Shown here piece by piece: positions 2,241 to 36,284 of a stretch of DNA of 40,000 nt. How positions within the stretch are numbered: the stretch's first letter is position 1; each line of letters begins with the position of its first letter. The position numbers were made by a program, and so were the translations under genes. The stretch is from Aphanothece sacrum FPU1 (GTDB lineage Bacteria > Cyanobacteriota > Cyanobacteriia > Cyanobacteriales > Microcystaceae), in assembly GCF_003864295.1 (NCBI RefSeq), contig NZ_BDQK01000001.1, positions 440,676 to 480,675 of the forward strand, in the 5' to 3' direction. Below the pieces are notes generated by a model. It was given only the letters and a program-made list of their open reading frames with translations, was not told the origin of the DNA and did no database searches.

Positions 2241-2249
2241 ACAGGAGTT

Positions 2250-2440
2250 ATGATGCCCACAAAAAAGTTGAATAAACCCGCCCCTCTTTTATGATGCCCA
2301 CAAAAAAGTTGAATAAACCCGCCCCTCTTTTATGATGCCCACAAAAAAATTGAATAAACCCGCCCGTATTTTATGATACCCACAAAAAAATTGAATAAAC
2401 CCGCCCCCTATGACATGATACTCACAAAAAATAAGGATTA
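2250..2440. repeat. 41-bp tandem repeat, 4 full units plus one degenerate unit, abutting the start codon at 2444
   Basis: Units start at 2250, 2291, 2332, 2373 and 2415 (ATGATGCCCACAAAAAAGTTGAATAAACCCGCCCCTCTTTT). Units 1 and 2 are identical and later units diverge progressively. Confidence 0.95.
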
Positions 2441-19439: not shown

Positions 19440-20642
19440 ATGCGAGAATGTATATATCTTGATAACAACGCCACCACCCAAATAGACGAGGAAGTCTTAG
19501 GGGCGATGATGCCCTACCTGACCCTCTACTATGGCAACCCCTCTAGTATGCACACCTTTGGCGGACAAGTAGGACGAGCCGTAACCACCGCTAGAGAACA
19601 GGTCGCCTCCCTTTTAGGGGCAGATGCTTCAGAAATCGTCTTTACCAGTTGTGGTACTGAAGGAGATAATGCTGCTATTCGTGGGGCCCTAGCTGCTCAA
19701 CCGAATAAACGCCATATCGTCACTAGCGAAGTTGAACACCCTGCTGTTCTTAATCTTTGCAAAAACCTTGAAAAACAGGGTTATACGGTAACATATCTTT
19801 CGGTTAATAATCAAGGACAACTTGACCTGAGTGAAGTAGAAGCCTCTCTCACCGGGAACACAGCCCTAGTTTCGATTATGTATGCGAATAATGAAACTGG
19901 CGTTGTCTTCCCAGTAGAAAAGGTGGGGCAACTGGCGAAAGATTATGGAGCGATCTTCCATGTGGATGCAGTGCAAGCAGTGGGAAAAATTCCTCTCAAT
20001 ATGCAAACTAGCACCATAGATCTCTTAACCCTCTCTGGTCATAAAATCCATGCTCCTAAAGGCATTGGTGCTTTGTATGTCCGTCGCGGTACTCGCTTCC
20101 GTCCTTCCATGATTGGGGGACATCAAGAACGGGGCCGTCGGGCAGGTACGGAAAATGTCCCTGGGATTGTAGCATTAGGAAAAGCGGCCGAGTTAGCTCA
20201 ATATCATTTAGCTAATGTGTCTGGCGAACGGCAATTACGGGATTATTTAGAACAAACAATTCTGACTTTAATTCCGAATACGGTGGTCAATGGTCATCCG
20301 ATTCAACGATTGCCTAATACGACAAATATTGGTTTCAAATATATTGAAGGTGAGGCGATCTTACTCTCTCTAAATCAATATGAGATTTGTGCTTCTTCGG
20401 GTTCTGCTTGTACCTCTGGTTCCTTAGAACCTTCTCACGTCCTGCGGGCTATGGGACTTCCTTACAGTGTTCTTCACGGTTCGATTCGCTTTAGCCTTTC
20501 TCGTTATACAACACAAACTCAGATTGATCGAGTTCTTGAGGTTTTACCAGGAATCATTGAGCGATTACGGGCTTTATCTCCCTTTAATAGCGATGATTCT
20601 AGCTGGTTACAAGAACAAGAACTAGCCGTATTAGCTAAGTAA
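19440..20642 (+). CDS. nifS: Cysteine desulfurase NifS
   Basis: Class V aminotransferase with SGHKIHAPKG (PLP lysine) and SSGSACTSG active-site Cys loop. Confidence 0.95.
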   Translation: MRECIYLDNNATTQIDEEVLGAMMPYLTLYYGNPSSMHTFGGQVGRAVTTAREQVASLLGADASEIVFTSCGTEGDNAAIRGALAAQPNKRHIVTSEVEHPAVLNLCKNLEKQGYTVTYLSVNNQGQLDLSEVEASLTGNTALVSIMYANNETGVVFPVEKVGQLAKDYGAIFHVDAVQAVGKIPLNMQTSTIDLLTLSGHKIHAPKGIGALYVRRGTRFRPSMIGGHQERGRRAGTENVPGIVALGKAAELAQYHLANVSGERQLRDYLEQTILTLIPNTVVNGHPIQRLPNTTNIGFKYIEGEAILLSLNQYEICASSGSACTSGSLEPSHVLRAMGLPYSVLHGSIRFSLSRYTTQTQIDRVLEVLPGIIERLRALSPFNSDDSSWLQEQELAVLAK

Positions 20643-20810
20643 ATCATGAATGATAAATGATGAATGATGAATTGAAAAAATGGCTATAAAGGTAAGTATT
20701 ATACCTTCATAACTGACAATCTAGTCTAACAGTTCATAATTCATAATTCATAATTCATAATTCATAATTTAGAATTTTCTCAACTGATAACTGATAAGTG
20801 GTAACTGACT
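20643..20810. repeat. Composite heptamer element: ATGAATG-type arm, core CAATCTAGTCTAA, (TTCATAA)x5 arm, then AACTGAT units
   Basis: Left arm 20643-20673, core 20717-20729, right arm 20733-20769, AACTGATAACTGATAAGTGGTAACTGACT 20782-20810. It fills the whole nifS-nifU spacer. Confidence 0.95.
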
Positions 20811-21695: not shown

Positions 21696-21706
21696 TTAAT
21701 TGTCAA

Positions 21707-21800
21707 CTATGAATGAGAAATGATGACCTATGAATTGGAAAAATAGATGTCAACAATCTAGTCTAAAATTCATAATTCATAATTCATAATTCATAATTTT
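21707..21800. repeat. Second copy of the composite element (ATGAATG-type arm, core, (TTCATAA)x4-5)
   Basis: Left arm 21707-21736, core CAATCTAGTCTAA 21754-21766, right arm 21767-21800. A shorter paralogue of 20643-20769. Confidence 0.95.
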
Positions 21801-23033: not shown

Positions 23034-23200
23034 CAGTGAACAGTGAACAGTGAACAGTAAACAGTTGTCAAAACTTTTAACTGATAACTGATAACTGATA
23101 ACTGATAACCCCCTTACCCCTTCTTCAGTGAACAGTAAACAGTAAACAGTAAACAGAGCAACAGTGATTTAACTGATAACTGATAACTGATAACTGGTAA
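23034..23200. repeat. Two tandem composite modules [(GTGAACA/GTAAACA)n - spacer - (AACTGAT)n]
   Basis: Module 1 is 23034-23110 and module 2 is 23126-23200. Four AACTGAT units in module 1 and about 3.5 in module 2. Confidence 0.95.
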
Positions 23201-26344: not shown

Positions 26345-26367
26345 TCAAAGGGAGACAAGGAAGAACA

Positions 26368-26394
26368 GGGGGAAAAGGAATTCTTTTCCTCCCC
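26368..26394 (+). terminator. Hairpin after nifK (GGGGGAAAAG-gaatt-CTTTTCCtCCCC)
   Basis: 7-bp core stem extendable with a bulge, 24 nt after the nifK stop, followed by CTCTCCTTTT. A weak terminator or processing candidate. Confidence 0.4.
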
Positions 26395-26407
26395 CCCCTC
26401 TCCTTTT

Positions 26408-26443
26408 AGAAGTTAGAAGTTAGAAGTCAGAAGTCAGAAGTTA
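26408..26443. repeat. Heptamer array (GAAGTTA/GAAGTCA)x5
   Basis: agaagttagaagttagaagtcagaagtcagaagtta, read directly. Confidence 0.95.
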
Positions 26444-26492
26444 AATGCTTTTTATGCTTCCTTTATTTCGACCAAAAGTAGAGATATATGAC

Positions 26493-26531
26493 CAGTGAAC
26501 AGTGATTTAACTGATAACTGATAACTGATAA
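26493..26531. repeat. Composite GTGAACA - (AACTGAT)x3 module
   Basis: cagtgaacagtgatttaactgataactgataactgataa is near-identical to 23160-23198. Confidence 0.95.
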
Positions 26532-26642
26532 AGCTCAATCCTCTCTACCACCAATTTATTATTTTGCGCTTACGCGCTCTCACTTAAATGTGCTGATGTT
26601 TGCGGCGAAGATGTTGGTCATTATATCTGTTAAAGGGACGCA

Positions 26643-26722
26643 ATAGTTAATAGTTAATGGTTAGTAGTTTATACATAAAAACTATCAATTATCAACTGTT
26701 AACTATTAACTCTCAACTCTCA
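26643..26722. repeat. Inverted heptamer arms (TAGTTAA-type, then TTAACTA/TCAACTA-type) immediately upstream of nifE
   Basis: atagttaatagttaatggttagtagtt - tatacataaa - aactatcaattatcaactgttaactattaactctcaactctc. The arms are imperfect complements. Confidence 0.9.
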
Positions 26723-26736
26723 AAAGGAATTCAGTC

Positions 26737-28149
26737 ATGAAATTAACAAAAGGCAAAATCAACGAACTGCTAACGCAACCCGGTTGTGAGCATAATCATA
26801 AAAAAGAGGGTGAGGGTAAAAATAAGTCTTGTACCCAACAAGCTCAACCCGGTTCTGCTCAAGGAGGCTGCGCTTTTGATGGTGCATCTATCGCCCTTGT
26901 TCCTATCACCGATGCAGCCCATTTAGTTCATGGTTCTATTGCTTGTTCTGGTAATACTTGGGGCAGTCGTGGCAGTCTGTCAAGCGGCCCTAATACTTAT
27001 AAAATGGGTTTTACAACTGATTTATCAGAAAATGATGTTATTTTTGGTGGTGAGAAAAAACTTTATCAAGCAATTGGTCAACTCATTACACGTTATCATC
27101 CAGCCGCAGTTTTTGTCTATTCAACTTGTGTTACTGCCCTCATTGGGGATGATTTAGATGCAGTCTGTAAAGCTGCTAGTAATAAGTTTGAAACTCCTAT
27201 TGTTCCGGTTCATGCACCAGGATTTGTGGGTAGCAAAAATCTGGGCAACCGTTTAGGAGGAGAAGCTTTACTTGACTATGTAGTCGGAACTAGAGAACCG
27301 GAATATACCACTCCTTATGATATTAATCTCATTGGAGAATATAATATCGCGGGTGAAATGTGGGGTGTTATTCCCTTATTAGAAAAAGCGGGATTTCGGG
27401 TTCTTTCTAAGATTACAGGTGATGCTCGTTATAATGAGGTTTGTTATGCTCATCGGGCTAAACTTAATGTTATGATTTGCTCGAAAGCTTTAATTAATAT
27501 GGCTACTGCCATGAAGGAACGTTACGATATTCCTTTCATAGAAGAATCCTTCTATGGTGTAGCTGATATGAACCGTTGTTTACGCAATATTGCCGCTTTC
27601 TTCGGTGATGCTGCTTTACAAGAACGGGTAGAAAATTTAATTGAAGAACAAACCCTTAAGTTAGACATCGCTTTGGCCCCTTATCGGCAAAGGTTAGAGG
27701 GTAAACGCATGGTCTTATATACAGGAGGTGTAAAAAGTTGGTCAATTGTATCAGCCGCTCAAGATTTAGGTATTGAAGTCGTCGCAACTAGCACTAAAAA
27801 AAGCACAGAAGAAGACAAAGCGCGTATTAAACAGTTGCTTGGTCAAGATGGCATTATGCTAGAAAAAGGCAGCCCCGAAGAACTATTACGAGTCATTGAA
27901 AAAACAAAGGCTGATTTATTAGTTGCAGGGGGACGTAATCAATATACTGCCCTGAAAGCTAGAATTCCCTTTTTAGATGTTAACCAAGAACGTCATCATC
28001 CTTATGCGGGTTATGTCGGTATGGTGGAAATGGCTAGAGAATTAGATGAGGCAGTACATAGTCCTATTTGGCGACAAGTCCGTCAAGCTGCCCCTTGGGA
28101 AATTTGGCAACAAGAACATGAAAGTTTGTTGCATTTGGAAGCAGAGTAG
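26737..28149 (+). CDS. nifE: NifE FeMo-cofactor scaffold subunit
   Basis: 470 aa; GCAFDGASIALVPITDAAHLVHGSIACSG and NifD-like architecture. Confidence 0.95.
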   Translation: MKLTKGKINELLTQPGCEHNHKKEGEGKNKSCTQQAQPGSAQGGCAFDGASIALVPITDAAHLVHGSIACSGNTWGSRGSLSSGPNTYKMGFTTDLSENDVIFGGEKKLYQAIGQLITRYHPAAVFVYSTCVTALIGDDLDAVCKAASNKFETPIVPVHAPGFVGSKNLGNRLGGEALLDYVVGTREPEYTTPYDINLIGEYNIAGEMWGVIPLLEKAGFRVLSKITGDARYNEVCYAHRAKLNVMICSKALINMATAMKERYDIPFIEESFYGVADMNRCLRNIAAFFGDAALQERVENLIEEQTLKLDIALAPYRQRLEGKRMVLYTGGVKSWSIVSAAQDLGIEVVATSTKKSTEEDKARIKQLLGQDGIMLEKGSPEELLRVIEKTKADLLVAGGRNQYTALKARIPFLDVNQERHHPYAGYVGMVEMARELDEAVHSPIWRQVRQAAPWEIWQQEHESLLHLEAE

Positions 28150-28333
28150 GGAGAGCAGGGAGCAGGGAGCAGGGAGCAGGGAGCAGGGAGCAGGGGAGCA
28201 GGGGGAGTAGGGGAGAAGAAAAATTGTCTTATTGTCCCATCATCCCATCATCCCATCACCCCATCACCCGATTACCCCATCACCCCATCACCCCATCACC
28301 CCATCATCCCATCATCCCATCATCCCATTACCC
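28149..28333. repeat. (GGGAGCA)x6-plus G-tract array followed by (CCCATCA/CCCCATCA)x~13 C-tract array
   Basis: The G-tract array spans 28149-28216 and starts at the last base of the nifE stop (TAG 28147-28149). The C-tract array spans 28236-28333 and ends 20 nt before the nifN ATG. Confidence 0.95.
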
Positions 28334-28352
28334 AACAGAAGGAGGAACGGAA

Positions 28353-29735
28353 ATGACCACTATTTTAAGTCCCAATAAGTCTCTATCAGTCAACCCCTTA
28401 AAAATGAGTCAACCTTTAGGCGCGGCCTTAGCGTTCTTAGGGTTAAAAGGAATGATGCCTTTATTTCATGGGGCCCAAGGTTGTACAGCCTTTGCTAAAG
28501 TAGTCTTAGTTCGTCATTTCCGTGAATCAATTCCCTTGTCTACCACTGCTATGACGGAAGTAAGTACCATTTTAGGGGGTGAAGACCATGTTGAGCAAGC
28601 TATCTTAACAATTGTTGACAAATATAAACCTCAAGTTATTGGTTTGTTAACTACAGGGTTAACGGAAACGAGAGGGGATGATATGGGAGGTATTCTCCAG
28701 GTAATTCGAGAACGTAACCCCAAATTAAACAATTTACCCATTATTTTCGTTTCTACTCCTGATTATAAAGGATCGTTACAAGATGGGTATACAGCCGCCA
28801 TAGAAAGCATTGTTTCTACGGACTATGGGTCTTTCACCCCTGACCAACCGTTGATGGCTTCTGTGGGGATGCAGCCTCAAGTGACCATTCTGTGTAGTTC
28901 CTCTTTATCTCCTGGAGATGTGGAAGAACTCAAAGCGATCGTGGAAGGATTTGGCTTAACTCCTATCATGATACCCGATCTGTCTCGTTCTTTGGATGGT
29001 CACTTAGAAGATAATCCTCATACGGTAACAACAGGGGGAACCACATTAACCCAACTGCAACAATTAAACCGTTCTTGCTTTACTTTAGCGGTTGGGGAAA
29101 GTATGCGCAAAGCAGCCCAAATTTTAGAACAACGGTTTGGGACTAAATATGAGGTTTTCTCCCGTTTAGCGGGGTTAGATGGAGTAGATGCCTTTTTATG
29201 GCGACTCTCTCAGATTATTACTTCCCGTTGTGATCATCATTTCCCCATTATCCCCAATATTCCGGCCTATCTGCAACGTCAACGCCGTCAGCTACAAGAT
29301 ACTATCCTCGATACTCACTTCTATTTTGGGGGCAAAAAGGTAGTTTTAGCTTTAGAACCGGATTTACTGCACCAAACCGCCTGGTTATTAAATTCTATGG
29401 GGGCTAAAATCCAAGGGGCTGTTACAACGACAAAATCCCCCTTATTAGAAGATTTACCCATAGAAACGGTAATAATCGGGGATTTAGAAGATTTAGAAGA
29501 TTTGGCTGTCGGCTGTGACCTGGTGATTACCAATTCTCATGGCGGCCCCATTGCCAAACGACTCCATGCCCCATTGTATCGTATGGGATATCCCGTATTT
29601 GATCAATTAGGCAATGGTCAACGATGTTTAGTAGGTTATCGAGGAACGATGCAATTTCTTTTTGATGTGGGTAATATTTTACTCGAAGAAGAAGTTAAAC
29701 ATAGTCCTTGTTCATCTACCTATGTTAATAGTTAA
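28353..29735 (+). CDS. nifN: NifN FeMo-cofactor scaffold subunit
   Basis: MTTILSPNKSLSVNPLKMSQPLGAALAFLGLKGMMPLFHGAQGCTAF with GGAGGA 7 nt upstream of ATG 28353. The ORF-track start (TTG 28224) merely translates the CCCATCA array. Confidence 0.93.
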   Translation: MTTILSPNKSLSVNPLKMSQPLGAALAFLGLKGMMPLFHGAQGCTAFAKVVLVRHFRESIPLSTTAMTEVSTILGGEDHVEQAILTIVDKYKPQVIGLLTTGLTETRGDDMGGILQVIRERNPKLNNLPIIFVSTPDYKGSLQDGYTAAIESIVSTDYGSFTPDQPLMASVGMQPQVTILCSSSLSPGDVEELKAIVEGFGLTPIMIPDLSRSLDGHLEDNPHTVTTGGTTLTQLQQLNRSCFTLAVGESMRKAAQILEQRFGTKYEVFSRLAGLDGVDAFLWRLSQIITSRCDHHFPIIPNIPAYLQRQRRQLQDTILDTHFYFGGKKVVLALEPDLLHQTAWLLNSMGAKIQGAVTTTKSPLLEDLPIETVIIGDLEDLEDLAVGCDLVITNSHGGPIAKRLHAPLYRMGYPVFDQLGNGQRCLVGYRGTMQFLFDVGNILLEEEVKHSPCSSTYVNS

Positions 29736-29803
29736 TAGTTGATAGTTAATGGTTAACAGCTATTAACTACCAACTCGTAACTATCAACTGCCAACGACTA
29801 CTT
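29724..29803. repeat. Inverted heptamer arms (TAGTTAA-type / TTAACTA-type) spanning the nifN stop
   Basis: gttaatagttaatagttgatagttaatggttaacagctattaactaccaactcgtaactatcaactgccaac. The inner stem TAGTTAAT/ATTAACTA is perfect and the outer pairing is imperfect. Confidence 0.9.
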
Positions 29804-29825
29804 ATTATCTCTAGGAGGAACGGAA

Positions 29826-30221
29826 ATGAAAGTTGCTTTTACGACCAGTGATAATGTTCATGTTAATGCCCATTTTGGTTCAGCTAGTCAAATTGCCCTC
29901 TATGATGTTTCTCCCAATGGGTTTAACTTTGTTAATACCTTGAAGTTTAACGGAGAATTAAAAGAAGATGGGAACGAAGATAAATTAGTTCCTAAAATCG
30001 AGGCTTTAAACGGTTGTACTTTAATCTATGTTTCTGCTATTGGAGGTAGTGCTGCAGCCCGTTTAATTCGTAAAAATGTAACCCCAATTAAAGCTCGTAC
30101 CGAAGATGATAAAATTGATGAAATTCTTGGTGAATTAGTCAAAACCTTAAAAGGAAATCCTCCTCCCTGGTTACGCAAAGTTCTACAACAAGAATCACAA
30201 CCTGTCAGTTTTGAAGACTAG
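29826..30221 (+). CDS. nifX: NifX
   Basis: MKVAFTTSDNVHVNAHFGSA... dinitrogenase FeMo-cofactor-binding fold, positioned after nifN. Confidence 0.92.
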   Translation: MKVAFTTSDNVHVNAHFGSASQIALYDVSPNGFNFVNTLKFNGELKEDGNEDKLVPKIEALNGCTLIYVSAIGGSAAARLIRKNVTPIKARTEDDKIDEILGELVKTLKGNPPPWLRKVLQQESQPVSFED

Positions 30222-30337
30222 GAATAGTAAATAGTAAATAGTGAATAGTTAATAGTGAATAGTTAATCAATACTCACTATCAACTATTAACTAAAAACCA
30301 TCAACTATCAACTATCAATTACTAACCATCAACTACT
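30222..30337. repeat. Inverted heptamer arms (AATAGTA/AATAGTG/AATAGTT then CACTATC/AACTATT/AACTATC) filling the nifX-DUF269 spacer
   Basis: Read directly. The spacer is repeat-derived from the base after the nifX stop to the base before the next ATG. Confidence 0.95.
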
Positions 30338-30814
30338 ATGACAACGACAACTCAAAATCCTGAAACATCTCCTAGTTTAATTGCAGAAAGTCTATTTCTA
30401 CAAGAATTAGTCCGTCAAATTCGCGCCTTTGATCACTATGGATTTTATCGAAGTTGGTCTGATGAATTAGTTCTGTCTCCTTTCATCATAGCTAAGAAGA
30501 AAAGACGGGAAATTTCCTTAGAAGGAGATGTTGACCCTACCACAAAAATGAGAATTCTCTGTTTCTATCGTGCCATTGCTTCTTTGATTGAAAAAGAAAC
30601 CGGACAATTATGTCAAGTGGTGGTAGATTTAAACCATGAAGGCTTTGGTTGGGTATTAATTTGGTGTGGTCGTTTAATGGTAGTCACTCGTACCTTAAGA
30701 GATGCTCATCGCTTTGGTTTTGAAACCATGGAATCTTTAGCAGAACAAGGGAAAAATTTAACAGCTTCCGGCGTTGAAATGGTTAAACGTTTTCCTGAAG
30801 TTGCTCAATTTTAA
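30338..30814 (+). CDS. NifX-associated nitrogen fixation protein (DUF269 family)
   Basis: 158 aa. SWSDELVLSPFIIAKKKRREISLEGDVDPTT...FYRAIA pattern and conserved position after nifX. Confidence 0.85.
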   Translation: MTTTTQNPETSPSLIAESLFLQELVRQIRAFDHYGFYRSWSDELVLSPFIIAKKKRREISLEGDVDPTTKMRILCFYRAIASLIEKETGQLCQVVVDLNHEGFGWVLIWCGRLMVVTRTLRDAHRFGFETMESLAEQGKNLTASGVEMVKRFPEVAQF

Positions 30815-31407: not shown

Positions 31408-32226
31408 ATGGAATTCACCCCTACTGAACTAGAACGCTATTCCCGACAAATACAACTTCCTGGTTTTGGCCAAGAAGGACAAAAACGCCTCAAGGACTCC
31501 ACTGCCGTCGTTACTGGAGTCGGGGGACTCGGCGGCACTGTAGCCCTTTATTTGGCTGTTGCTGGCGTAGGTAAATTAATTCTCGTTCGTGGGGGTGATT
31601 TGCGCCTTGATGACCTCAATCGTCAAATTTTGATGACTAATGCTTGGGTAGGTCAACCCAGAGTCTTTAAGGCTAGGGAAACCCTCTTAAATATTAACCC
31701 AGAAATCGAAATTGAGGCGGTTCACGAATTTGTCACCCCTGACAATGTGGATGCTTTAGTACAACAGGCTGATATTGCCTTTGACTGTGCCTTTGATTTT
31801 ACGGAACGGAATCTCCTCAATGCTGCTTGTGTGCGGTGGGGGGTTCCGATGGTGGAAGCAGCTATGAGTGGCATGGATGCGTACTTAACCACCATTATTC
31901 CTGGGGAAACTCCTTGTTTATCTTGTATTTTCCCAGAAAAACCAGATTGGGATCGATGGGGATTTGGGGTTTTAGGCGCAGTTTCAGGAACTTTAGCCTG
32001 TTTAGCTGCCTTAGAAGGAATTAAACTCCTCACTGGCCTCGGAGAACCCTTAACGGGTCAACTTTTGACGATGGACTTGGGCAGCGCAACTTTTGCTAAA
32101 CGTCGTCCTTATCATGATCCTAATTGTCCGGTTTGTGGGCATTTTACCCAACAACGGTTAATGAGTTACGTCGGAAAGCAAAAGGCACAAGTTCAGAATT
32201 ATGAATTCATAATTCATAATTCATAA
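31408..32226 (+). CDS. hesA: HesA (ThiF/MoeB-family adenylyltransferase)
   Basis: RYSRQIQLPGFGQEGQKRL, GVGGLGG nucleotide loop and CxxC pairs (CLSC, CPVC). The last ~9 codons lie in the TTCATAA array. Confidence 0.92.
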   Translation: MEFTPTELERYSRQIQLPGFGQEGQKRLKDSTAVVTGVGGLGGTVALYLAVAGVGKLILVRGGDLRLDDLNRQILMTNAWVGQPRVFKARETLLNINPEIEIEAVHEFVTPDNVDALVQQADIAFDCAFDFTERNLLNAACVRWGVPMVEAAMSGMDAYLTTIIPGETPCLSCIFPEKPDWDRWGFGVLGAVSGTLACLAALEGIKLLTGLGEPLTGQLLTMDLGSATFAKRRPYHDPNCPVCGHFTQQRLMSYVGKQKAQVQNYEFIIHNS

Positions 32227-32250
32227 TTTAGAATTTATAATTCATAATTT
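32195..32250. repeat. TTCATAA-family heptamer array overlapping the hesA 3' end
   Basis: agaattatgaattcataattcataattcataatttagaatttataattcataattt. It contains the 14-bp palindrome TTATGAATTCATAA. Confidence 0.95.
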
Positions 32251-33087: not shown

Positions 33088-33099
33088 GTTAAACTAACA

Positions 33100-33155
33100 C
33101 AGTGAACAGTTATCAAAACTTTTAACTGATAACTGATAACTGATAACTGTTAAAC
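33100..33155. repeat. Composite GTGAACA - (AACTGAT)x4 module after fdxH
   Basis: cagtgaacagttatcaaaacttttaactgataactgataactgataactgttaaac is near-identical to 23050-23110. AACAGTTATC and GATAACTGTT are a perfect 10-bp inverted repeat. Confidence 0.95.
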
Positions 33156-34225: not shown

Positions 34226-34852
34226 ATGAAATGTAATTCCTGTCCTGATAGTTGTGAAACCAAGTCCAATAAACCGAAGCAAAAAAGTAGACGTTTTTGG
34301 GCAAAACAAACAACTAAACCATCTCCTCCCCCTAGTAATCATCCTACTATTATTTTAGTAGGTTCTCCTAATGTGGGAAAAAGTCTACTGTTTAATGTAT
34401 TAACAGGTTCTTACGTTTCCGTAGGTAACTATCCTGGTACTACAGTAGAAGTTTCACGCAGTCATACCATTATTGGGGGACAAACAGTAACAATGATAGA
34501 TACTCCTGGAATGTATTCTTTAGTTTCTTTAACCGAAGAAGAAAAGTTCTCCAGAAATTTATTATTTACTGAAAAAATTGATTTGGTCATTCATGTTATT
34601 GATGCCAAAAATGTGAGTAGAATGTTACCCCTAACGTTTCAATTAATTGAAACTCAGATCCCTATTATTTTAGCAGTCAATATGATTGATGAAGCTGAAA
34701 AATTAGGAATTTGGGTTAATGAGAAACAATTAGAGGCTTCTTTGGGAATCTCAGTTGTTACCCTCTCAGCCATCCAAAAACGTGGGATTCAAACTCTAAC
34801 TAATAAGGTGGCAAATCATGTCTTTATTCCTTCGTTATCCTACAGCTATTGA
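34226..34852 (+). CDS. feoB: FeoB N-terminal GTPase domain (separate ORF) with Cys-rich N-terminal extension
   Basis: G1 GSPNVGKS, G3 DTPG and G4 NMID motifs. About 45 aa precede G1, including CNSCPDSC. The ORF ends in the G-domain/helical-domain linker. Confidence 0.85.
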   Translation: MKCNSCPDSCETKSNKPKQKSRRFWAKQTTKPSPPPSNHPTIILVGSPNVGKSLLFNVLTGSYVSVGNYPGTTVEVSRSHTIIGGQTVTMIDTPGMYSLVSLTEEEKFSRNLLFTEKIDLVIHVIDAKNVSRMLPLTFQLIETQIPIILAVNMIDEAEKLGIWVNEKQLEASLGISVVTLSAIQKRGIQTLTNKVANHVFIPSLSYSY

Positions 34853-36284
34853 AGAAGGGATTACTAAAATTGAGTCCCTACTCAGCAAAAATAAAGTCAT
34901 TATGTCGATGACTGTTAATTCTTCAGTTTCTCGACGCTCTTTAGCCTTATTACTACTCCAAAAAGAACCCATTTTTTGGAAAAAAATACAACAACAAGAA
35001 CCTTATATTGTTGAAATTGAATCTGTTATACAGTCAGTTCAATCTCAATTTAGTGATCCCTTAATTTTAGTGATTGCTAAAACTCGCCATCAGATGGCCA
35101 GAAAAATAGAAGAATCTGCTGTTGTTAAGCTCAAGAAAAAATCCCCTGAAGGAGAAGATTTTTTCCATCAATTAACGGTCAATCCTATTACGGGTTTTCC
35201 CTTACTTATTTTTGTCCTTTATTTTGGTATTTATAAATTTGTTGGGGAGTTTGGGGCTGGAATTTTAGTGAATCAAATCGAAGGATTTTTTGCTAACAAT
35301 ATTAATCCTGTCGTTAATCAAATAACGGCTCAATTTTTACCTTGGAAGATCGCGCAAGATTTAATTGCCAATGATTATGGTATTATTACATTAGGAGTTC
35401 GCTATGCGATCGCTATTATTTTTCCGATTGTAACTACTTTCTTTTTAGTCTTGTCTTTACTAGAAGATAGTGGTTATCTGCCTCGAATTTCCTTGTTAGT
35501 GGATCGTTTATTTAAACCACTTGGACTTTCAGGACGTGCCATTATTCCTCTTATTTTGGGGCTAGGATGTGGGACAATGGCAACTTTAGTGACTCGCACT
35601 TTAGAAAGTAAAAGAGAAAGATTTATTGCTACTCTTTTATTAGCATTGGTCATCCCTTGTTCGGCTCAATTAGGCATTATTTTAGGGTTACTTTCTCAAA
35701 ATCCTTTAGCCTTAACAATTTGGCTAGGATGTCTTGGAATTGTCTTCTTAGGAGTAGGGATATTAACAGCAAAAGTTATCCCTGGTAATATGTCCTCATT
35801 TTATATGGAAATTCCCCCTTTACGTTGGCCTCATCCGATGGGAATTGTCAGTAAAACCTATGGCCGTGTTAAATGGTATATTAAAGAAATTACTGGCTTA
35901 TTTATTTTAGCATCTATCTTTATTTGGATAGGAAAATTAACTGGAATCTTTGAATTATTAGTTAACTTACTCAATCCAATTATGATAGATTTAGGATTAC
36001 CTAAAGATGCTGCTTCTGTGTTTTTGTATGGATTTTTCCGTCGAGATTATGGGGCAGCCGGAATGTTTGATTTATATAATTCTGGTATTTTAGACGGGCG
36101 ACAATTAGTTGTAACTGCTGTTACTCTAACCTTATTTATTCCTTGTATTGCTCAATTTCAATCTCTTTTGAGAGAACAGGGACTTAAAACTACTCTAGGT
36201 ATGACTAGCTTCATTCTTACTTTTGCCTTTTGTATTGGCTATTCTCTCAATCAATTATTACTAATTTTCGAGGTAAGTTTCTAA
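34818..36284 (+). CDS. feoB: FeoB helical and membrane (gate) domains (separate ORF, +1 frame relative to the G-domain ORF)
   Basis: LEDSGYLPRISLLVDRLFKPLGLSGRAIIPLILGLGC is the FeoB gate motif. It is colinear with full-length FeoB right after the G domain. ATG 34818 is preceded by AAGGTGG. Confidence 0.85.
   Translation: MSLFLRYPTAIEEGITKIESLLSKNKVIMSMTVNSSVSRRSLALLLLQKEPIFWKKIQQQEPYIVEIESVIQSVQSQFSDPLILVIAKTRHQMARKIEESAVVKLKKKSPEGEDFFHQLTVNPITGFPLLIFVLYFGIYKFVGEFGAGILVNQIEGFFANNINPVVNQITAQFLPWKIAQDLIANDYGIITLGVRYAIAIIFPIVTTFFLVLSLLEDSGYLPRISLLVDRLFKPLGLSGRAIIPLILGLGCGTMATLVTRTLESKRERFIATLLLALVIPCSAQLGIILGLLSQNPLALTIWLGCLGIVFLGVGILTAKVIPGNMSSFYMEIPPLRWPHPMGIVSKTYGRVKWYIKEITGLFILASIFIWIGKLTGIFELLVNLLNPIMIDLGLPKDAASVFLYGFFRRDYGAAGMFDLYNSGILDGRQLVVTAVTLTLFIPCIAQFQSLLREQGLKTTLGMTSFILTFAFCIGYSLNQLLLIFEVSF

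Follow-up and report, generated by a model that had tools for sequence, protein, structure and literature searches.

Three heptamer-repeat hairpins in the nif cluster of Aphanothece sacrum FPU1 as members of a fast-changing, genome-wide repeat class

Results

The window analyzed here, a 40,000-nucleotide stretch of the A. sacrum FPU1 genome, carries a nif cluster in which three structures lie among nifK, nifE, nifN, nifX, and the DUF269 gene. An earlier note on this DNA had described, at three cistron junctions, TAGTTAA-type heptamer runs with the reverse-complement family coming after them, and this arrangement was confirmed on the + strand at 26642–26707, 29724–29788, and 30221–30327. All three hairpins have a period of 7 with 4.6–8.6 copies per arm (TRF), and they form imperfect stems of 27–36 bp. 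Hairpin 1 (26642–26707), upstream of nifE, has a 27-bp stem (RNA −23.9 kcal/mol, z −5.56) made of a 5′ arm of 4.6 AATAGTT units (26642–26673), an 8-nt loop (26674–26681), and a 3′ arm of 6.3 AACTATC/AACTATT-type units (26680–26723), the C-form units continuing past the stem to 26723. Hairpin 2 (29724–29788) spans the nifN stop codon (TAA, 29733–29735) with a stem of 27 bp (RNA −25.0 kcal/mol, z −4.85); its 5′ arm (GTTAATA, 4.7 copies, 29724–29756; TRF) encodes the last three codons of nifN and the stop, and its 3′ arm of TAACTAC/CAACT-type units reaches 29803. The perfect 8-bp pair proposed for this junction, TAGTTAAT with ATTAACTA, is part of this 27-bp stem, as are the outward extensions AGTTG/CAACT and ATAGTTA/TAACTAT. 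Hairpin 3 (30221–30327), in the nifX–DUF269 spacer, starts on the final base of the nifX stop codon, ends ∼10 nt short of the DUF269 ATG, and has a 36-bp stem (RNA −24.7 kcal/mol, z −4.46), its antisense strand giving the more stable fold (−36.9). Its 5′ arm comprises 6.4 copies of AATAGT(A/G/T) (30222–30267; TRF) and its 3′ arm 8.6 copies of an ACTATCA-type unit (30276–30335), with the last C-form unit 2 nt before the DUF269 ATG.

Comparison with dinucleotide-shuffled controls, which the earlier note had proposed as a check, showed that the spacers fold far better than expected (RNA z −4.46 to −5.56): at each site, 0 of 200 shuffles folded as well as the native RNA. Folded as DNA, hairpins 1, 2, and 3 gave −11.5, −12.6, and −13.2 kcal/mol, respectively (z about −4). 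The sequence matches that of another public assembly (GCA_003864315.1, BDQL01000047.1) without a difference over 10,396 bases, so the arrays are not an assembly artifact. Rich in A/U, the stems are weak per base pair, and their tails have no T runs or U-tract; given these features and no + strand terminator call at the three sites, intrinsic (Rho-independent) terminators were rejected. No match to an Rfam family at gathering score was found across the 40-kb window.

The claim that one design had been built three times holds for the architecture at the three junctions but not for the count, as the same architecture is found in ∼10 modules of 4–5 unit families across the spacers from nifS to fdxH and belongs to a genome-wide repeat class. 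The layout of a module is a tandem array of 7-nt units, a short loop, and an array of complementary units. On the + strand, the nifS–nifU module (20642–20808) consists of (AATGATG)n at 20642–20672, a core with CAATCTAGTCTAA, and (TTCATAA)n at 20733–20769, and the spacer also holds an (AACTGAT)n array (20782–20808) ending 2 nt from the nifU ATG. Its paralogue between nifU and nifH (21705–21798, +) has an ATGAATG-type arm, the CAATCTAGTCTAA core, and (AATTCAT)n. Between nifH and nifD (23034–23200, +) lie two tandem modules of the form (CAGTGAA/CAGTAAA)n ... (TAACTGA)n, the first with the loop CAGTTGTCAAAACTTTTAACTG and framed by GGGGG...CCCCC. In the nifK–nifE spacer (26406–26531, +), a (TTAGAAG)n array together with a small CAGTGAA/TAACTGA module stands where relatives have the initial two thirds of an intact small ORF. 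Between nifE and nifN (28149–28333, +), G-form (GAGCAGG)n begins on the final base of the nifE stop codon and is followed by C-form (CCCATCAC)n, the two arrays being complementary in part only. ATGAATT/AATTCAT arms overlap the hesA stop between hesA and hesB (32189–32249, +), and a CAGTGAA...TAACTGA module with the conserved loop lies downstream of fdxH (33099–33153, +). TAACTGA arrays within the window are located at 23078–23200, 26508–26531, and 33123–33153. The distance between the stop codon and the start of the 5′ arm is at most 12 nt for 7 of 9 nif modules.

On a genome-wide scale, we found 611 period-7 arrays, of which 100 lie mostly within crude ORF calls and the remainder are intergenic, and ∼51 hairpin-type loci in all spacer contexts. 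Heptamer units occur in the genome as often as their reverse complements, and at least 12 unrelated unit families share one architecture and polarity. Arrays occupy 9 of 15 nif spacers compared with 408 of 3839 spacers genome-wide (Fisher p = 4e-6), and for hairpin-type spacers the corresponding counts are 7 of 15 and 51 of 3839 (Fisher p = 3e-10); the nif cluster is the genome's densest hot spot of hairpin modules. Adjacent arrays are inverted in 24 of 54 pairs, against 13.3 ± 3.1 by permutation, and 67 of 77 arrays have the G-containing arm 5′. Copies of entire modules that share a conserved loop or core are scattered through the genome: the loop and frame of the CAGTGAA/TAACTGA module, which we compared with MITEs, are conserved at at least seven loci sharing the CAGTTGTCAAAACTTTTAACTG consensus, with arms of varying length and no established target-site duplications. 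The TAGTTAA family itself forms at least one hairpin outside the nif cluster (G000:C5:145151-145205). Overall, arms lengthen and shorten by 7 nt at a time and are replaced fast, and modules are duplicated or dispersed whole.

The modularity proposed in the earlier note is apparent in that the 7-nt units are interchangeable and any G-arm can pair with any C-arm. Co-variation of the two arms, which the note had proposed to check between strains, was seen in length across loci (rho 0.69, p = 2e-5) but not at finer scale: variant units do not follow mirrored orders in the two arms. When unit order was permuted within arms, energies were equal or better in 14–21% of trials. The sense strand folded better than the antisense at only 19 of 35 untied codirectional loci (36 tested) and at 2 of 7 nif loci, and non-neighboring arms paired as well as or better than neighbors (−35.2 and −29.4 kcal/mol versus about −21 to −25 locally). 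Nothing in these strand, unit-order, and cross-pairing tests marks selection on the mRNA fold.

NifX and the synteny of the nif cluster identify the host as a relative of Crocosphaera; cyanobacteria of this type are unicellular and non-heterocystous. In two congeneric relatives with near-identical flanks, the same junctions differ in unit family or in presence or absence of the array; in one such presence-absence case (relatives G003 and G020), TAA stands on both flanks, possibly by chance. In six Crocosphaera-type relatives, nifN and nifX are separated by a conserved, repeat-free spacer of 54–66 nt, and hairpin 2 was absent from all Crocosphaera-type relatives sampled. Only one or two arrays occur across the whole nif cluster in the one UCYN-A genome sampled and in a small-genome relative (G018), both of which have kept full nif clusters. 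Among relatives, the layout is kept upstream of nifE and partly at nifX–DUF269; at nifN–nifX, it is absent in close relatives and present in Nostocales. Arrays occupy the nifN–nifX spacer in 35 of 80 other cyanobacteria, and one Nostocaceae MAG has the same GTTAATA/AACTATT units there (z −6.2). Judged from these sequence comparisons, the hairpins are dispensable in relatives.

All three PF05635 genes in the genome lie between inverted arrays, G-left and C-right. One is flanked by heptamers of the ATGAATT/TTCATAA family, which also occurs in the nif spacers, and the other two are bracketed by G-rich/C-rich arrays (GGTGGCAGG-type, period 9, and GGGTGAT/CATCACT-type) resembling those between nifE and nifN. 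Across 18 genomes of the order, 30 PF05635 loci were compared: arrays stand on both sides of 26, the flanks are complementary at 23, and polarity is G-left at 19 against 2. The three nif hairpins were rejected as full elements of this kind, as their loops, which differ from one another, measure 3–12 nt and contain no ORF.

Discussion

The reading that we favor, with moderate confidence, is that the three structures are gene-less STRR-type heptamer-repeat palindromes of a genome-wide class, any effect on RNA being probably a tolerated or mildly exploited side effect. Arm growth is likeliest to proceed by slippage in 7-nt steps, and close relatives show wholesale turnover; the earlier contrast of a designed hairpin with random slippage is not upheld, and the function implied by the word "generator" has no demonstration in this analysis. 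Because the units have stop codons in every frame, the modules survive only between genes, where they take up the space between a stop codon and the ribosome-binding site that follows it. Because these spacers sit in a same-strand, presumably co-transcribed cluster, the modules should be transcribed and should then form long, A/U-rich, imperfect intercistronic stems of 27–36 bp. Most likely, such stem-loops would be cleaved by a double-strand RNase or would block 3′ exonucleases, as proposed for STRR and REP, and either would give the segments of the operon RNA differing lifetimes. As the 5′ arm begins at or beside the upstream stop codon, translation of neighboring cistrons may also be coupled.

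Among known systems, the closest is the set of STRR hairpins in the nif and hupSL spacers of Anabaena/Nostoc. The consensus units of the classical STRR1–3 are CCCCAGT, TTGGTCA, and CAACAGT. The TAGTTAA/TTAACTA units found here are not among these classical units, and the only families with a likeness to STRR3 are AACAGTG/AACAGTT, which occur elsewhere in the genome. The term STRR is now applied more broadly (PMC2670836). Like the present modules, STRR hairpins of Anabaena, Nostoc, and Lyngbya consist of tandem 7-nt units at many intergenic loci and form inverted arrays predicted to fold between the co-oriented cistrons of nitrogen fixation–related operons. Those STRR hairpins are hypervariable in sequence among close relatives while the structure-forming layout persists (PMC2670836; PMC4284476); here, such persistence was seen upstream of nifE and in part at nifX–DUF269 but not at nifN–nifX in close relatives. 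The host differs too, being in the present case a Crocosphaera-type relative. Roles in transcript stability or translational coupling were proposed for those between hupS and hupL (PMC2670836), and Anabaena nif transcripts are processed, with stem-loops near the processing sites (PMC4284476, which cites Jackman & Mulligan 1995). The TAACTGA-type repeats of Beggiatoaceae and cyanobacteria (MacGregor 2015, PMC4679880) are likewise intergenic heptamer arrays, some abutting start codons and differing between Cyanothece strains in 7-nt steps, but they were described as direct repeats and possible protein-binding sites with essentially no inverted pairs, whereas the arms here are inverted. We know of no account in the STRR literature of the fixed 5′ polarity of the G-arm, the promiscuous cross-pairing of arms, or the link to PF05635 seen here.

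REP/BIME elements of enterobacteria are intercistronic palindromes that stabilize upstream mRNA, have a conserved G+C-rich consensus of 20–40 nt, and are tied to RAYT transposases. They resemble the present modules as dispersed, imperfect palindromes in operon spacers. Transcription and a role as 3′ stem-loops that set different stabilities for the segments of one operon are established for REP and would be analogous here; the present modules are, in contrast, A/T-rich tandem 7-mers of many families with much longer stems. Identity with REP/BIME was rejected, there being no conserved palindromic consensus but at least 12 unrelated unit families and differing loops. RNase III substrates are double-stranded stems of ∼20 bp or more, and cleavage at the intercistronic RNase III sites of phage T7 gives the upstream segment a protective stem at its 3′ end. 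The T7 sites are also imperfect hairpins that contain internal loops and separate the cistrons of one long polycistronic RNA, but they are unique conserved sequences rather than tandem-repeat arms, and the likeness would be one of mechanism only.

A serious, though on balance unlikely, alternative is that the modules are selfish or neutral repeat DNA, arising by slippage and duplication, harmless in spacers and with no measurable effect on nif expression. The lack of strand bias in folding and of mirrored unit order, the roughly expected number of modules in convergent and divergent spacers, the complete turnover between congeners, the near-absence from the UCYN-A genome and G018 despite full nif clusters, and the overwritten small ORF between nifK and nifE are all consistent with it, and it would attribute the nif enrichment to permissive long spacers or local recombination rather than to use. 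Against it stand the 75-fold enrichment in one operon, the recurrence in distant lineages of the stop-arm-loop-arm-SD layout at nifN–nifX, and the correlated arm lengths and fixed polarity, which suggest constraint on the paired form; moreover, RNases and ribosomes would be unlikely to ignore an mRNA stem of 27–36 bp.

The modules could also be gene-less relatives of an element like the 23S rRNA intervening sequences, whose full form has a PF05635 four-helix-bundle gene and whose arm stalk RNase III excises, a doubtful reading to which we give some weight. PF05635 is a family of intervening-sequence proteins, intervening sequences are cut by RNase III (10.1101/2024.02.27.582315), and diversity-generating retroelements have a protein, Avd, to which the family is related (PMC10053308). 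In 23S rRNA intervening sequences with an S23p/PF05635 gene, the flanks of the inserted segment form a long stem, and here PF05635 genes stand between arms like those of the nif spacers; the bracketing of all three genes with fixed polarity and the two-sided, mostly complementary arrays across the order point the same way. However, the three hairpins lie in mRNA spacers between protein genes rather than in rRNA helices and carry no gene; no PF05635 gene lies between TAGTTAA-type arms in this genome, and no PF05635 remnant was found in hairpin loops or in 150–360-nt cargo segments. Further, the element has no known target-site duplications or insertion mechanism, and the arrays also bracket unrelated cargo, so the PF05635 gene is perhaps one more tenant. 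The more elaborate version of this reading is fainter still: the hairpins would represent a widespread element of this kind in its gene-less state (full form, a PF05635 gene between polar arms, G-form 5′ on both strands), with RNase III-type stalks cutting nif RNA into cistron-sized pieces, including long-range pairings that loop out nifX or nifEN, and with polarity as a footprint of spread.

It is improbable that the functional structures are not the local hairpins but long-range stems around whole cistrons, like rRNA processing stalks, in which the nifN-stop arm pairs with the post-nifX arm to loop out nifX (G2 × C3, −29.4 kcal/mol) and the pre-nifE arm with the nifN-stop arm to loop out nifEN (C1 × G2, −35.2 kcal/mol). 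These duplexes are more stable than the local pairs (−20.8 to −25.3 kcal/mol), the minimum free energy fold of 29715–30340 pairs G2 with C3, and inverted arrays of one family enclose ∼11 genes of the genome, nifU and nifX included; nevertheless, the C1 × G2 duplex depends on G·U pairs and is only 77% Watson-Crick, co-transcriptional folding and ribosomes would favor a neighbor 2–20 nt away over a partner at 0.5–3 kb, and cross-pairing is the expected by-product of one common unit family. Least probable of all is that the arrays are iterated protein-binding sites on DNA or RNA (for a regulator, S1/Csp-type RNA binders, or Fur-like boxes in TGATAAC registers) with the hairpin incidental, for although TAACTGA arrays just before start codons were proposed to bind post-transcriptional regulators (PMC4679880), the AACTGAT array ends beside the nifU ATG, and deletion of heptamer repeats alters reporter expression in Nostoc (10.1101/2022.06.06.494920), one architecture and polarity shared by so many unrelated units argues against a single sequence-specific binder, and congeners swap units at the same site.

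Overall, on the STRR-type reading that we prefer, the correlated arm lengths and fixed polarity point to constraint on the paired form, and the three hairpins are ordinary members of a fast-changing class with no sign of a purpose-built nif device. Rather than the design of a nif regulator, any effect on the RNA is probably a side effect of the repeat elements that A. sacrum tolerates or mildly exploits.

Inverted heptamer arrays at three nif junctions are predicted to fold

The nif cluster lies on the + strand of the window in the order nifB, fdxN, nifS, nifU, nifH, nifD, nifK, nifE, nifN, nifX, the DUF269 gene, a small Rop-like gene, nifW, hesA, hesB, fdxH, and feoB. An earlier note had described inverted TAGTTAA-type arrays at three of its cistron junctions, and we recovered all three, each on the + strand. 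Hairpin 1, upstream of nifE, consists of (AATAGTT)x4.6, an 8-nt loop, and (AACTATC-type)x6.3. Hairpin 2 lies across the nifN stop, where (GTTAATA)x4.7, an array whose letters encode the final nifN codons and the TAA, is followed by TAACTAC/CAACT-type units. Hairpin 3, made of (AATAGTN)x6.4 and then (ACTATCA-type)x8.6, occupies the nifX-DUF269 spacer nearly from the nifX stop to the DUF269 ATG. Because the second public assembly, GCA_003864315.1 (the only other one with an identical NifX), shows no base difference over 10.4 kb, the arrays are not an assembly artifact. Separately, we noted that FeoB is split into a G-domain ORF (34226-34852, 208 aa) and a membrane-domain ORF (34818-36284, 488 aa) with a 35-nt overlap, and that the second assembly calls both genes likewise.

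For nifN-nifX, the same note had proposed a stem of more than 20 bp with periodic mismatches. Consistent with this proposal, the predicted RNA stems of hairpins 1, 2, and 3 comprised 27, 27, and 36 bp, respectively, with periodic internal loops, and their folding energies of -23.9, -25.0, and -24.7 kcal/mol (z -5.6, -4.9, and -4.5) were reached by none of 200 dinucleotide shuffles. Folded as DNA, the three hairpins gave -11.5 to -13.2 kcal/mol (z about -4). The local arm duplexes had energies of -23.2, -20.8, and -25.3 kcal/mol; the nifN-stop arm (29724-29758) paired with the arm after nifX (30276-30335) at -29.4 kcal/mol and with the arm before nifE (26680-26723) at -35.2 kcal/mol. Since non-neighboring arms out-pair the local partners, nifEN and nifX can be looped out in silico, and in the minimum-energy fold of 29715-30340 nifX was looped out and the two local hairpins were not formed. 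A description of the duplex between the C-containing arm of hairpin 1 and the G-containing arm of hairpin 2 as "near-perfect 30-bp" was dropped, because this duplex is G·U-dependent and 77% Watson-Crick.

The hairpins belong to a genome-wide class of modules

Folding of every spacer in the cluster revealed that the hairpin architecture, here termed a module (an array of 7-nt units, a short loop, and an array of complementary units), recurs at several junctions beyond hairpins 1-3. At nifS-nifU and nifU-nifH, ATGAATG/TTCATAA arms flank the common core CAATCTAGTCTAA; nifH-nifD holds two CAGTGAA/TAACTGA modules; nifK-nifE has two additional arrays or modules beside hairpin 1; nifE-nifN has a GAGCAGG array and then a CCCATCAC array; and hesA-hesB and the region 3' of fdxH contain one module site each. 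Across the 4.49-Mb genome (37% G+C), Tandem Repeats Finder detected 611 period-7 arrays, and ∼51 loci were of the hairpin type (a reverse-complement partner lies no more than 150 nt from the array), the hairpin counts being lower bounds because detection was by ungapped matches. The idea that the design is particular to three cistron junctions therefore had to be abandoned. A clear fourth TAGTTAA-family hairpin lies outside nif, at G000:C5:145151-145205; the TAGTTAA-family 14-mer search with 2 mismatches is too permissive in this A/T-rich genome and served only for picking clear arrays. Genome-wide, a unit and its reverse complement occur equally often (e.g. AATTATG 60, AATTCAT 58).

Based on crude gene calls from ORF length, arrays were found in 9/15 nif spacers versus 408/3839 genome-wide (Fisher p 4e-6) and hairpin-type loci in 7/15 versus 51/3839 (Fisher p 3e-10). 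Apart from a zone of tandem repeats on a different contig, no part of the genome has such hairpins packed more densely than the nif cluster. For the CAGTGAA/TAACTGA module, conservation of the loop, CAGTTATCAAAACTTTTAACTG, and of a GGGG...CCCC frame was seen at no fewer than seven loci, and therefore whole modules, not units alone, have been copied round the genome.

Other repeats were observed alongside this class. The most array-rich zone of the genome, G000:C6:80000-93000, carries TAAATTA arrays every 108 nt as a higher-order tandem repeat. A dispersed repeat of ∼35 nt, TTTGTATAGCTTAACTATGAACGAGTTAAAGTCTA, occurs in both orientations at at least 25 intergenic sites (e.g. C1:105554, C1:188398, and C13:202473), and some (ATGAATT)n...(AATTCAT)n arm pairs also enclose it. 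At window positions 2248-2431, in the spacer between two + strand ORFs, a 41-nt tandem repeat (TTATGATGCCCACAAAAAAATTGAATAAACCCGCCCCTCTT) is present in 4.5 copies, preceded by a 16-nt repeat at 2186-2238.

Arms are paired and have a nearly fixed polarity

Among 54 adjacent array pairs, 24 were of the inverted type, compared with 13.3 +/- 3.1 when array identities were permuted. Left and right arm lengths correlated across 30 loci (Spearman 0.69, p 2e-5), a value that family effects and pair selection may inflate; co-variation was assessed across loci and between congeners in place of between strains, and an exact-word scan of metagenome contigs for strain variants found nothing. Polarity was nearly fixed, with the G-containing form 5' and the C-containing form 3' in 67 of 77 informative arrays from at least 12 unit families, an arrangement that is identical when read on either strand. 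These adjacency, arm-length, and polarity data are signs of constraint on the paired form.

Isolated arrays, with the nif cluster excluded, tended to show the G-form close to the 3' ends of genes and the C-form close to the 5' ends of genes (odds ratio 8.6, p 1e-15), which suggests that many of the "single" arrays represent arms left from degenerate modules. We withdrew a reading of this bias as a transcript-oriented rule: mathematically, this bias and the strand-symmetric G-left/C-right rule are one and the same, and it is therefore uninformative on the direction of transcription.

Individual hairpins turn over among relatives

nif synteny is retained in nine relatives, sampled as one genome per species and including Crocosphaera sp. 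XPORK-15E and the UCYN-A4 MAG. Six Crocosphaera-type relatives have a conserved nifN-nifX spacer of 54-66 nt with no repeats, and hairpin 2 is therefore lineage-specific. The 3' arm of hairpin 1 is visibly homologous to an AATTATC/CAATTG-centered array at the equivalent position in two relatives, and some relatives have arrays at nifX-DUF269, which a congener of one of them lacks. In two congeners whose flanks are 97-99% identical, the unit families differ at fdxN-nifS, nifH-nifD, and nifE-nifN. By a strict criterion, hairpin-type nif spacers numbered 6/14 here and 7/14 in one more distant relative; Crocosphaera-type genomes had 0-1 such spacers, and the UCYN-A4 MAG and a 3-Mb relative had none. 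Of 80 further cyanobacteria, 35 carried 6-8-nt arrays within the 132 nt preceding nifX, 6 of which fold with z < -3, and the G-form came first in 9 of the 12 cases with two arrays. One Nostocaceae MAG carries (GTTAATA)x8...(AACTATT)n at nifN-nifX (z -6.2), sharing both units and junction with hairpin 2.

At nifK-nifE, where Crocosphaera-type relatives have an intact 102-aa ORF, the arrays stand in place of its first two thirds; in the remnant (26525-26634), which starts where the TAACTGA array ends, only residues 68-102 (the ∼35 last codons) are recognizable, in two frames with a frameshift. Taken together, these sequence comparisons suggest that the layout recurs and that single hairpins are quickly gained, lost, and swapped, and would be dispensable for a working nif cluster.

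Two further palindromic features were seen at these junctions. A G/C-rich stem-loop directly after the nifK stop (26366-26399) is, unlike the adjoining heptamer arrays, conserved in all Crocosphaera-type relatives and is a candidate 3' end or stabilizer of the nifHDK segment. In the nifX-DUF269 spacers of the Crocosphaera-type loci L002-L007, the DUF269 gene is preceded by a conserved palindrome, ATGAACAATTTGAC...CAAATTGTTCAT; this palindrome is absent from the window, where this spacer is almost wholly heptamers.

Tests for selection on the RNA fold

A selected mRNA fold would be expected to place its mismatches as G·U on the sense strand and A·C on the antisense strand. Of 36 loci between co-oriented genes, however, 19 had the better fold on the sense strand and 16 on the antisense strand (Wilcoxon p 0.76), the sense strand was better folded in only 2 of 7 nif loci, and the antisense strand of hairpin 3 folded far better (-36.9 versus -24.7). 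With no such bias, sense-strand-specific selection was rejected. Similarly, permuting the order of whole units within arms gave energies equal to the real order in 14-21% of trials, so that unit variants are unmirrored between the arms, and a mirrored order of variants was likewise rejected. Hairpin-type loci in convergent and divergent spacers were about as frequent as expected, with a mild excess only between co-oriented genes. The main rival explanation, that the modules are neutral passengers, has these null results on one side and the signs of constraint on the paired form on the other, and we consider it rather unlikely.

Intrinsic terminators were rejected, because none of the three hairpins has a G+C-rich stem plus T-tract and no + strand terminator was called. 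An Rfam scan of the 40-kb window returned no match. We also observed that the (TTCATAA)n arrays at 20733-20775, 21769-21797, and 32192-32248 automatically yield phased promoter-like hexamers (TTCATA-N17-CATAAT, 9/12); promoter-like matches across the region overall were not above shuffled expectation.

PF05635 genes lie between inverted arrays

All three genes of PF05635, the family of intervening-sequence proteins of 23S rRNA, in the genome (G000:C13:871919-872564, C13:574850-575500, and C13:479870-480390) lie between inverted arrays in the G-left/C-right arrangement. In the first of these intervals, the gene occupies 871952-872335. One flank pair, ATGAATT x6 and TTCATAA x34, belongs to one of the unit families of the nif spacers, and the other two (GGTGGCAGG-type with CTGCTCC-type and GGGTGAT-type with CATCACT-type) resemble the G-rich/C-rich arrays of nifE-nifN. 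Only ∼11 of ∼4200 genes are bracketed on both sides by period-7 arrays with a complementarity score of at least 15, and these include one PF05635 gene, nifU, and nifX. Across 18 genomes of the order, 30 PF05635 loci were compared: arrays stood on both sides in 26 and the flanks were complementary in 23, with G-left polarity in 19 versus the reverse in 2. PF05635 has a relative in Avd, a protein of diversity-generating retroelements (PMC10053308), and RNase III is the enzyme that removes intervening sequences from rRNA (10.1101/2024.02.27.582315). We found no TAGTTAA arms around any PF05635 gene of the genome and no PF05635 remnants in hairpin loops or in 150-360-nt cargo segments. Because such arms also enclose other dispersed repeats, the PF05635 gene may be cargo, not driver.

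Discussion

Heptamer repeats have been on record in cyanobacteria since about 1990, and what they do is a long-standing question. The nif cluster of Anabaena variabilis is reportedly transcribed mainly from the nifB promoter, and its RNA is said to be processed, with stem-loops near the processing sites and segment half-lives that differ. Hairpins of 7-bp short tandemly repeated repetitive (STRR) units at hupS-hupL and elsewhere in filamentous cyanobacteria have been described as "not unusual" and of unknown function, with transcript stability or translational coupling suggested (PMC2670836); TAACTGA arrays are documented in cyanobacteria, 7-nt-step differences among Cyanothece strains included (PMC4679880), and deletion of heptamer repeats affects reporters in Nostoc (10.1101/2022.06.06.494920). 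Since STRR hairpins and TAACTGA arrays have been described before, the hairpins of the window join an already known class: they are, with little doubt, STRR-type palindromic repeat modules that occur throughout the genome, evolve fast, are polar, and have their concentration in the nif operon.

In 7 of 9 nif modules, the start of the 5' arm lies no more than 12 nt from the stop codon. Because the modules lie inside a same-strand, presumably co-transcribed gene cluster and span from a stop codon to the next Shine-Dalgarno sequence, long A/U-rich stems would be expected in the polycistronic RNA. Such stems may be cut by a double-strand RNase or block exonucleases, in which case segment stabilities would differ, or they may be melted by terminating ribosomes, which would give translational coupling. 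A measurable RNA-level effect of the modules is conceivable, if somewhat doubtful; on balance, we favor the combined statement that they are repeat modules and that their RNA stem is a side-effect, mildly exploited at most.

The nif operon is well understood and strongly induced. With ∼10 hairpin modules of few unit families in a single operon, this genome offers a compact test bed, and relatives without hairpins at the equivalent junctions (the UCYN-A genome and Crocosphaera-type strains) make the question of segment stability or translational coupling versus passengers testable. Whether heptamer spacers can be removed matters for nif cluster transfer to other hosts. Overall, the strand-symmetric polarity and the bracketing of every PF05635 gene would, if they hold more widely, help to trace where the class as a whole came from.
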